From assembly GCF_003334315.1 (NCBI RefSeq), contig NZ_QOWR01000011.1: DNA of 64,000 nt; one strand, given 5' to 3'. The notes beneath the pieces are model-generated. The model did no database searches, was not told the origin of the DNA, and saw nothing but the letters and a program-made list of their open reading frames with translations. Below, piece by piece: positions 51,598-53,550 of this stretch. The stretch's first letter is position 1. Each line of letters begins with the position of its first letter. The position numbers and the translations under genes are program-made. This DNA comes from Escherichia coli (GTDB lineage Bacteria > Pseudomonadota > Gammaproteobacteria > Enterobacterales > Enterobacteriaceae).

Positions 51598-53013
51598 TTA
51601 AACTTCTTTAAGTTTTGCGGTGAAGTGACGCAATACTTTCGGTTCGTACGTAAAGGTTAATCCTTTAATATTCGCCGCGTTCTCTTTCACATGTTTAAAG
51701 GCTTCAATAATGAAGTCCATATGTGTTTGAGTATATGTTGCGCGCGGAATGGTTAAACGCAGCAGTTCAGCCGGGCATGGCAGTTGTTTACCGGTTTTCG
51801 GATCGCGGCCTAACAGGAAAGAGCCAATTTCTACCGCACGGATACCGGCGACTTTATACAGCTCGCAGGCCAGCGCCTGTGCCGGGAACTGGTCTGCCGG
51901 GATATGCGGCAACAGTTTACCGGCATCAACGAATGCCGCGTGACCGCCCGCCTGCTGGCAGACAACGCCAATCTCTTCCAGACCATCGACCAGATACTGT
52001 ACCTGCGCGATACGATAAGCCAGCCAGTCGAGATTCATGCCGTCATACAGACCTACCGCCAGACGCTCCATCGCGCCGCCTTCCAGGCCGCCATATGTCG
52101 GGAAGCCTTCCTGCACCACGCAAAGGGTTCTGCACTCGGTGTACACATCAAAGAAGCTGTCGTCTTTCATGCACAGCAGGCCGCCCATCGGCACCATCGC
52201 ATCTTTCTTGGCGGACATCGCCAGCATATCGGCATATTTGTAGGTTTCGCGGGTGATCTGCTCGATGGTCCAGTCTTTGTATTCTGCTTCACGCTGCTTG
52301 ATGAAATAGGCGTTTTCAGCAAAGCGCGCGGAGTCCATTACCACCGGAATATCGTATTTCTTCGCGATGCTGTACATCGCTTTTAAGTTTGCCAGTGAAA
52401 CCGGCTGACCACCTGCAGAGTTACTGGTGATGGTTGCAACGATATACGGCACGTTATTCGGACCAACTTCTTCAATACCGCGTTCTAATCCCTCAAGGTC
52501 AAAGTTGCCTTTAAAGTCGTAACGCACGCCCGTATCGAAGGCTTCTTTGATATAGACGTTACGCACGGTACAGCCGTTGATCTGGCTATGGCCCTGCGTG
52601 GTATCAAAGAAATAGTTAGAGAACGCCACCATTTTGCTGCGATCCAGGCCTTTTTCCTGCTCGCGTTTTTTAATCAGTACCGGAATATAGATTTGCTCTG
52701 CGCCACGGCCCTGGTGAGTCGGAATGGTGTATTGATAACCAAAGATATTTTTCACTGACTCGGCTAACGCATAGTAGCTACGACTGCCGCTGTAGGCTTC
52801 GTCGCCGCGCATCATCGCAGCCTGCATGCTCTGCGTCACCGCCCCGGTGCCGCTGTCGGTCAGTAAATCGATAAACACATCTTCGCTATCCAGCAGGAAC
52901 GGGTTCATACCGGATTTAATAATTGCCTCTTCACGATAAGCGCGAGTGGTACGTTTTACTGGCTCAATAACACGAATGCGGAACGGTTCAGGGAGATGTT
53001 TAAAGTTTTCCAT
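51598..53013 (-). CDS. tnaA: Tryptophanase (tryptophan indole-lyase)
   Basis: ORF with native start [39 protein letters not shown], 471 aa. Confidence 0.98.
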
Positions 53014-53233
53014 TACATAATCCTTCATTTATTTTAATTACAGTGATCCCTGTGAATATTACATCTGCTATACCGATTAATTCGCCAGATATATATGCAA
53101 GCACCATCATTTACTAAAACAAGTAAATAAACGAGAGATGACCTTTGCAAAAGGCAAAATTAAGATATAGCAAACAAATAGATCACATTGAATCTAATCG
53201 GTTTGGCTCTGGTGATGGCTACAGAAGGGCAAA

Positions 53234-53308
53234 TCAAGGGCGGTGATCGACAATTTTGTTGTCAATATTGAACCATTTTGAGGTCACACATATATGTAAG
53301 ATATTCAT
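53234..53308 (-). CDS. tnaC: tna operon leader peptide TnaC (24 aa, MNILHICVTSKWFNIDNKIVDHRP)
   Basis: Minus strand reads ATGAATATCTTACATATATGTGTGACCTCAAAATGGTTCAATATTGACAACAAAATTGTCGATCACCGCCCTTGA; below the 60-aa track cut-off. Confidence 0.97.
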   Translation of the reverse strand: MNILHICVTSKWFNIDNKIVDHRP

Positions 53309-53383
53309 AATGCACTTATCCTCGCAAGACACGAGGCTACATTATTACACTCAGAGTTTTTGTCTATTCTGAAATTGTTTAAA

Positions 53384-53399
53384 TGTGAATCGAATCACA
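53384..53399. promoter_or_regulatory. CRP (CAP) binding site of tna promoter, palindrome TGTGAATCGAATCACA
   Basis: Perfect TGTGA-N6-TCACA palindrome about 75 nt upstream of tnaC start. Confidence 0.8.
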
Positions 53400-53550
53400 A
53401 TCGTTCGGGGAGCAATATTAAATGCTTTTTTTAAAGATTATAAATTACGTAAGAATTTTAATGTTTAAAAAAAGGGTTGAGGAATAACAGGAGTGGTAAC
53501 AATGAAGCGAAGCCGCATCTGACAGTCAGAATGCGGCTTCGTAAGCGCGG

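Follow-up and report, generated by a model that had tools for sequence, protein, structure and literature searches.

The closest described relative of the locus treated here is the leader of the Escherichia coli K-12 tryptophanase operon, tnaCAB, whose attenuator reportedly goes back to the work of Stewart and Yanofsky and of Gong and Yanofsky, the ribosome structures being those of van der Stel et al. 2021. In this study, we analyzed the mnmE-tnaA intergenic region in a 64-kb stretch of the E. coli contig NZ_QOWR01000011.1 (the whole stretch is called the window below), which a first inspection of the letters, the original prediction, had read as a tna leader. It is reported that, at low tryptophan, release factor 2 (RF2) frees the leader peptide TnaC at its UGA stop codon, the Rho utilisation (rut) site becomes accessible, and transcription is terminated by Rho ahead of tnaA. 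When tryptophan is high, L-Trp sits in the exit tunnel, TnaC-tRNA(Pro) can no longer be hydrolyzed, and rut is masked by the stalled ribosome (PMC8429421, PMC10941005, PMC12360218).

In speFL-speF, mgtL-mgtA, and corA, it is likewise the ribosome translating a short upstream open reading frame (ORF) that governs the access of Rho (PMC12360218). The tna leader resembles speFL in sensing a small molecule inside the exit tunnel, with release being blocked. It differs from these other attenuators in its ligand (L-Trp) and in its peptide family, and in that the ribosome is parked on the stop codon beside rut with no restructuring of the RNA. The trpL type (Trp_leader in Rfam) also uses a leader peptide to sense the tryptophan supply and to control transcription read-through. 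However, the tna leader works without alternative hairpins or an intrinsic terminator, it senses free tryptophan and not charged tRNA, and tryptophan induces the operon instead of repressing it.

Our results leave hardly any doubt that the region is the native leader through which the E. coli tnaCAB (tryptophanase) operon is regulated, with the same sequence as in K-12. Positions 53013-53550 are the complete intergenic region between mnmE (ORF 54915..53551) and tnaA (RefSeq start 53013, ORF end 51598). Both flanking genes and all relevant elements lie on the minus strand; the original prediction had named no strand. This 538-bp interval, tnaC included, is base-for-base identical to E. coli K-12 MG1655 in the alignment that had been proposed as a check, and many other E. 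coli match it at 100% as well. As a query, it was matched in 5420 of the 5426 complete E. coli genomes, every time on the chromosome. RefSeq annotates tnaC and tnaA of the K-12 locus at the positions corresponding to those of the window, and the gene order of the K-12 record is rnpA-yidD-yidC-mnmE-tnaC-tnaA-tnaB-mdtL. The window thus shares with the K-12 leader the same peptide, UGA stop, 220-nt spacer, CRP (cAMP receptor protein) site, boxA-like 9-mer, rut block, and gene order, with no difference inside the interval. All of the elements that the original prediction described are present in 53013-53550, but the interval is wider than the leader itself, as it also spans two elements outside the transcribed leader, a terminator-like hairpin (53541..53508) and, upstream of the CRP site, an A+T-rich stretch. 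The coordinates of the features are collected in Table 1.

Around the locus, three differences in 7538 bases were found against the MG1655 record NZ_CP032667.1, at 55788 (yidC), 52876 (tnaA), and 50818 (tnaB). All three are synonymous when checked against the ORF translations. The window thus departs from that record, and its source is a very close relative of it and not necessarily the same genome.

The predicted 24-codon leader ORF ending with Pro-stop was confirmed codon by codon as ATG...TGG12...CCT24-TGA. It has been reported that W12, D16, I19, and P24 are the critical residues of TnaC (PMC10941005). All four are intact in the window, with the Pro codon directly before the stop, and they are invariant in the nine E. 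coli alleles that were aligned for this study (93.7-100% identity). The codons for Trp12 and Pro24, whose loss had been named beforehand as evidence against a tna leader, are thus both in place. The peptide matched the NCBIfam equivalog TIGR02616 with 44.3 bits (cut-off 23.55) over profile positions 1-22 of 22 and Pfam PF08053 (Tna_leader) with E = 1.1e-19 (model positions 1-24 of 24), and it is identical to the TnaC chain (chain 7) of the solved structure entry PDB 6i0y. By the two family models, this peptide belongs to the TnaC family over its full length. Its sequence is the same in 9/9 alleles, where all five variable sense codons carry synonymous third-position changes. The length of 24 codons alone has no significance because such ORFs are abundant, 89 of at least 20 amino acids overlapping the surrounding 6 kb; the significance of tnaC comes from the family models, the identical PDB chain, and the synonymous-only variation among alleles.

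Lying upstream of tnaA and tnaB, the gene shares their strand, and the untranslated spacer from its stop codon to the tnaA ATG measures exactly 220 nt (53233..53014), which agreed with the approximate distance given originally. A C-rich, G-poor composition begins about 12 nt inside tnaC and covers the first 50 nt or so of this spacer. The segment 53180-53245 has 32% C and 17% G, with 13 YC dimers in 66 nt, and sliding windows over the block reach C 11/30 with G 5/30; the distal spacer has 12% C and 18% G. Previous investigations have described the rut site as adjoining the tnaC stop codon (PMC8429421, PMC10941005), and the block directly past the stop is here taken to be this site.

A rut site and a boxA-like sequence had been expected together in 53013-53233. 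The rut-like block is found there, but the boxA-like 9-mer CGCCCTTGA lies inside the 3' end of tnaC, over the stop codon, and not in the spacer. The 9-mer is identical to K-12 and is the sequence that we take to be the tna boxA, the existence and role of which were reportedly described by Konan and Yanofsky in 2000, as cited in PMC8429421 and PMC10941005.

The terminator scan found no hairpin followed by a T tract in 53013-53332; its sole terminator-like sites, at 53569-53603, are inside mnmE. The 319-nt leader RNA folds no better than its shuffles (z = -0.21), and Rfam matched no family over 52500-54000 at permissive thresholds (E <= 1). With a C-rich, G-poor, unstructured block at the stop codon, a boxA-like 9-mer, and no intrinsic terminator, the leader fits a Rho-dependent attenuator because Rho needs unstructured C-rich RNA. 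Taken together, the K-12 identity, the TnaC family match, the PDB 6i0y chain, the critical residues, the UGA stop, the conserved unstructured C-rich block past it, and the lack of an intrinsic terminator support the interpretation first offered for the region, namely tryptophan-induced ribosome stalling with Rho-dependent attenuation.

Upstream of the leader lies the CRP site, whose pattern TGTGA-N6-TCACA occurs only once in the 64 kb, with 0.11 matches expected by chance and at least one match in 10 of 100 shuffles. The description of this CRP site as a perfect palindrome was right for both pentamer half-sites and for the central TCGA, but the outer spacer bases are asymmetric, and 14 of the 16 positions are palindromic. 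In the allele alignment, the CRP core is retained even where an island replaces all of the upstream sequence. The start of tnaC transcription at -24 from the ATG was known earlier (Deeley 1982) and was found again in genome-wide mapping (PMC2760140). In the window, the start falls 24 nt upstream of the tnaC ATG, which gives a leader of 319 nt before the tnaA ATG, and the centre of the CRP site lies about 59.5 bp upstream of it by our own count. The promoter of tnaC is cited as an example of the class I CRP-dependent type (PMC5957442), and the window sequence is consistent with this class, for which a consensus site centred near -61.5 and a weak core promoter are expected.

The likely -35 and -10 hexamers are separated by 16 bp, and the -10 hexamer ends 7 nt before the start; AATAAT at 53346-53341 would be an overlapping alternative -10. 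A generic sigma-70 scan reported no minus-strand promoter at its threshold. The scan was silent on the tna promoter because the core is weak, as expected of an activator-dependent promoter.

TorR is also a regulator of tna. A search for the TorR box CTGTTCATAT with up to two mismatches found none in the promoter region, and the 53 matches in the whole window, against 47 expected, are no excess; the lead was dropped with the count at chance level.

The K-12-type allele differs from all eight other sampled alleles by a cluster of substitutions at 53342-53357, in the promoter spacer and the -10 region (AAAAACTCTGAGTGTAATAATG versus AAATTTCTTGAGTATTATACTG), and also at 53324 in the 5' untranslated region (5'UTR), where it has G and the others T. 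These substitutions are possibly a polymorphism of promoter strength.

No observation was found that contradicts the assignment as the tna leader. The assignment has some limits. The canonical class I CRP site is centred at -61.5, and the one in the window was counted at -59.5. The -35 and -10 hexamers were positioned from the published start, the tna leader has no family in Rfam and hence no independent model at the RNA level, and the rut block was assigned by its composition, conservation, and position. We also considered whether the leader region holds an undescribed regulatory element, for which 53403-53499 and parts of 53034-53179 would be candidates, and, separately, whether the UGA allele of tnaC may differ functionally from the UAA allele described below. 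Such an addition to the known system seems improbable. The first candidate segment is replaced wholesale in strains with the ShET2/EspL2 effector island. A difference between the stop alleles, for example in basal level or in tryptophan sensitivity, is conceivable because TnaC preferentially inhibits RF2, as stated in the title of a paper cited in PMC10941005.

A classical attenuator of the trp type, in which the position of the ribosome chooses between alternative hairpins and one of these is an intrinsic terminator, was also weighed, since a short leader ORF with a Trp codon upstream of a tryptophan-related operon is in keeping with this type. However, the minus-strand leader carries neither alternative hairpins nor a terminator stem with a U tract, its RNA is no more structured than its shuffles, and no Rfam leader family appeared even at the permissive threshold. 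The ORF has one Trp codon, 12 codons before the stop, and not the tandem control codons of that type, and the literature on the identical sequence reports Rho dependence. The lack of an intrinsic terminator and of structure in the leader RNA therefore rules out a hairpin attenuator of the trp type, to which we give almost no weight, and the Rho-dependent tnaC attenuator is retained.

The ORF list, made with a 20-amino-acid cut-off, shows tnaC as a 32-amino-acid ORF at 53234..53332 with a GTG start (MSCEDKCI-MNIL...), and this longer product could be taken for the real one. However, transcription has been mapped to start at this very GTG (53332), so that no ribosome-binding site can precede it, and the real start of tnaC is therefore the ATG at 53308. 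The Pfam model aligns only to residues 9-32 of the longer form, GAGGA stands upstream of the ATG, and both RefSeq and PDB use the 24-amino-acid form; the 32-amino-acid product is accordingly very improbable. Weakest of all, and with a probability close to nil, is the reading of the 24-codon frame as a chance ORF in A+T-rich intergenic DNA, with the region being merely a CRP-dependent promoter and a long 5'UTR, which the abundance of short ORFs noted above would allow, but against which stand the two family models passed over their full length, the identical peptide in a PDB entry, and the five sense-codon substitutions in nine alleles, all synonymous, next to flanking non-coding sequence that varies in up to about 20% of its columns.

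For the K-12-identical leader, CRP activation, Rho dependence, Trp-dependent stalling, and RF2 inhibition are taken from the literature on the same sequence, and the following course of events would apply to the window. The cAMP-CRP complex would bind its site and activate the weak sigma-70 promoter, and transcription would proceed from 53332 on the minus strand. A ribosome would translate tnaC while RNA polymerase enters the 220-nt spacer. At low tryptophan, RF2 would release TnaC at the UGA, and the departure of the ribosome would expose rut, which the boxA-like 9-mer overlaps; Rho could then load and stop transcription ahead of tnaA, at pause sites of the distal spacer. It is in the distal spacer that the literature places the polymerase pause sites and the sites of Rho-dependent release. 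At high tryptophan, free L-Trp would bind in the exit tunnel beside nascent TnaC (W12, D16, I19) and block the hydrolysis of TnaC-tRNA(Pro24), and the ribosome parked on the stop codon would cover rut, so that Rho could not load and tnaA and tnaB would be transcribed. Further published layers, namely pairing with the small RNA Spot42 and binding of ribosomal protein L4, would act on the same spacer.

Table 1. Positions of the tna leader features and neighbouring elements in the window, with the share of variable columns in the allele alignment
Feature	Position	Strand	Basis or remark	Variable columns
CRP site, TGTGA-N6-TCACA, TGTGAATCGAATCACA (minus-strand core reading TGTGATTCGATTCACA, 53399..53384)	53384..53399	.	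pattern search	
CRP 22-mer				4.5% (1 column, 7 colinear alleles)
CRP site to transcription start				about 21%
Likely -35 hexamer TAGACA, 5/6 to TTGACA	53361..53366	-	sequence reading; invariant in 9 alleles	
Likely -10 hexamer TAATGT (other alleles TACTGT)	53339..53344	-	sequence reading; T1, A2, T6 invariant	
Transcription start	53332	-	published start carried over via 100% identity to K-12	
5'UTR				4% (1/24)
Shine-Dalgarno-like GAGGA, 10 nt upstream of tnaC ATG	53319..53323	-		
tnaC, 24 codons + TGA stop, peptide MNILHICVTSKWFNIDNKIVDHRP	53234..53308	-	sequence reading, RefSeq WP_001364348.1	about 7%
tnaC codon W12, TGG	53275-53273			
tnaC codon D16, GAC	53263-53261			
tnaC codon I19, ATT	53254-53252			
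tnaC codon P24, CCT	53239-53237			
tnaC stop, TGA	53236-53234			
boxA-like 9-mer over tnaC codons 23-24 and stop	53234..53242	-	sequence reading	
C-rich, G-poor block directly past tnaC stop, putative rut site	53180..53233	-	composition, conservation, position	5.6%
Complement to the 15-nt Spot42 pairing region (AGCCAAACCGAUUA)	53195..53208	-	duplex prediction	
Distal U-rich spacer	53034..53179	-	T 40%, C 12%; most variable leader part	16-18%
tnaA ribosome-binding region, Shine-Dalgarno AAGGA 53025-53021, ATG 53013-53011	53011..53033	-		0% (20 nt before ATG invariant in 9 alleles)
tnaA, tryptophanase	53013..51598	-	ORF list + RefSeq annotation of matching K-12 locus	
tnaB, tryptophan permease	51507..50260	-	ORF list + RefSeq annotation of matching K-12 locus	
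Regulated structural genes, tnaA + tnaB together	50260..53013	-		
Terminator-like hairpin directly downstream of mnmE	53508..53541	-	fold + shuffle test	
A+T-rich stretch upstream of CRP site	53403-53499			

The distribution of variable columns over the leader (Table 1) and the constant peptide show purifying selection on TnaC and on the rut block. Spot42 regulation of the tna leader has been reported (PMC5748587). With the verified Spot42 sequence, the 15-nt pairing region is predicted to form a duplex of -18.6 kcal/mol with 53208-53195, a value reached by 1 of 1000 shuffles. Full-length Spot42 had been tried against the leader and gave a meaningless long-range duplex, as good in 44 of 300 shuffles, and it was replaced by the 15-nt region. 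Since the Spot42 complement is inside the C-rich rut block, the conservation of this block may reflect two overlapping functions, rut and Spot42 pairing. Ribosomal protein L4 is also reported to bind the spacer (Singh 2020, as cited).

In the ORF list, tnaA is five codons longer at its start, beginning with an in-frame ATG at 53028 (MKDYV-MENF..., 476 amino acids). RefSeq has the start at 53013 (471 amino acids), with the AAGGA Shine-Dalgarno sequence suitably spaced. Small same-strand ORFs in the spacer (e.g., 53110..53000, 36 amino acids) were considered, and no support was found for them; the region varies at many positions among the alleles.

The tnaC stop codon (53234-53236) is polymorphic. 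It is TGA in the window and in K-12 and TAA in three of the nine sampled alleles (L005, L008, and L009). UGA is read by RF2, and UAA can be read by RF1. The TAA allele is linked to a G-to-A change at 53229, 6 nt downstream, and to two synonymous changes, and its stop codon changes the boxA-like 9-mer too. When 60 nt of the TAA allele served as an exact query, 1718 of 5426 complete genomes (~32%) had a match of 99% or more.

Insertion sequences have also entered the leader in some strains. In strain E70 (L004, 787-1552), an IS1 lies in the distal tnaC-tnaA spacer at window 53065-53075, some 50-60 nt before the tnaA ATG, and its flanks match the window at 100%. The seven top matches of the 538-bp query all show an IS1 between two matching pieces, among which L004 alone was inspected. 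In strain AH62 (L011, 4045-4812), an IS1 replaces window 53001-53506, so that tnaC is lost together with its promoter, the spacer, and 13 nt from the start of tnaA, and RefSeq calls a shortened tnaA there. The tryptophanase of AH62 is probably deregulated or silent.

In O157:H7 (L002) and strain 98200 (L003), the homology ends at the upstream edge of the CRP core, and window ~53399-53550 is replaced. The replacing sequence carries a type III effector gene of the ShET2/EspL2 family on the opposite strand; the gene is intact in 98200 but has a frameshift in O157:H7. Coverage of the query is below 80% in about 790 genomes, and in the five that were sampled, all with 72%, the match begins at the CRP edge.

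The tna leader is an already known textbook system, and nothing new is added to it here. The value of the result is a correct annotation, that of an intact tna leader identical to K-12, and indole production should therefore follow normal catabolite and tryptophan control. The tnaC gene widely serves as a model of nascent peptides that sense a ligand, and synthetic tryptophan sensors use it as a part. The UAA-stop allele, the IS1 events, and the island beside the CRP site could interest students of variation in indole signalling among E. coli lineages.

Upstream of the leader, the hairpin at 53508-53541 begins 10 nt past the mnmE stop codon, which ends at 53551. It has a 15-pair stem of -23.9 kcal/mol (z = -4.35; not equalled by any of 200 shuffles) and is followed by CTTCATTGTT, a weak T tract, because of which the simple terminator scan did not list it. 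The hairpin is presumably the mnmE terminator; it sets mnmE apart from the tna promoter and is no part of the tna leader.

Elsewhere in the window, which was scanned in full against Rfam at gathering thresholds, two RNAs unrelated to the tna leader were found. These are the small RNA STnc410 at 26298-26455 (minus strand, 188 bits) and AsdA, an RNA antisense to dnaA mRNA, at 58524-58604 (minus strand, 102 bits).

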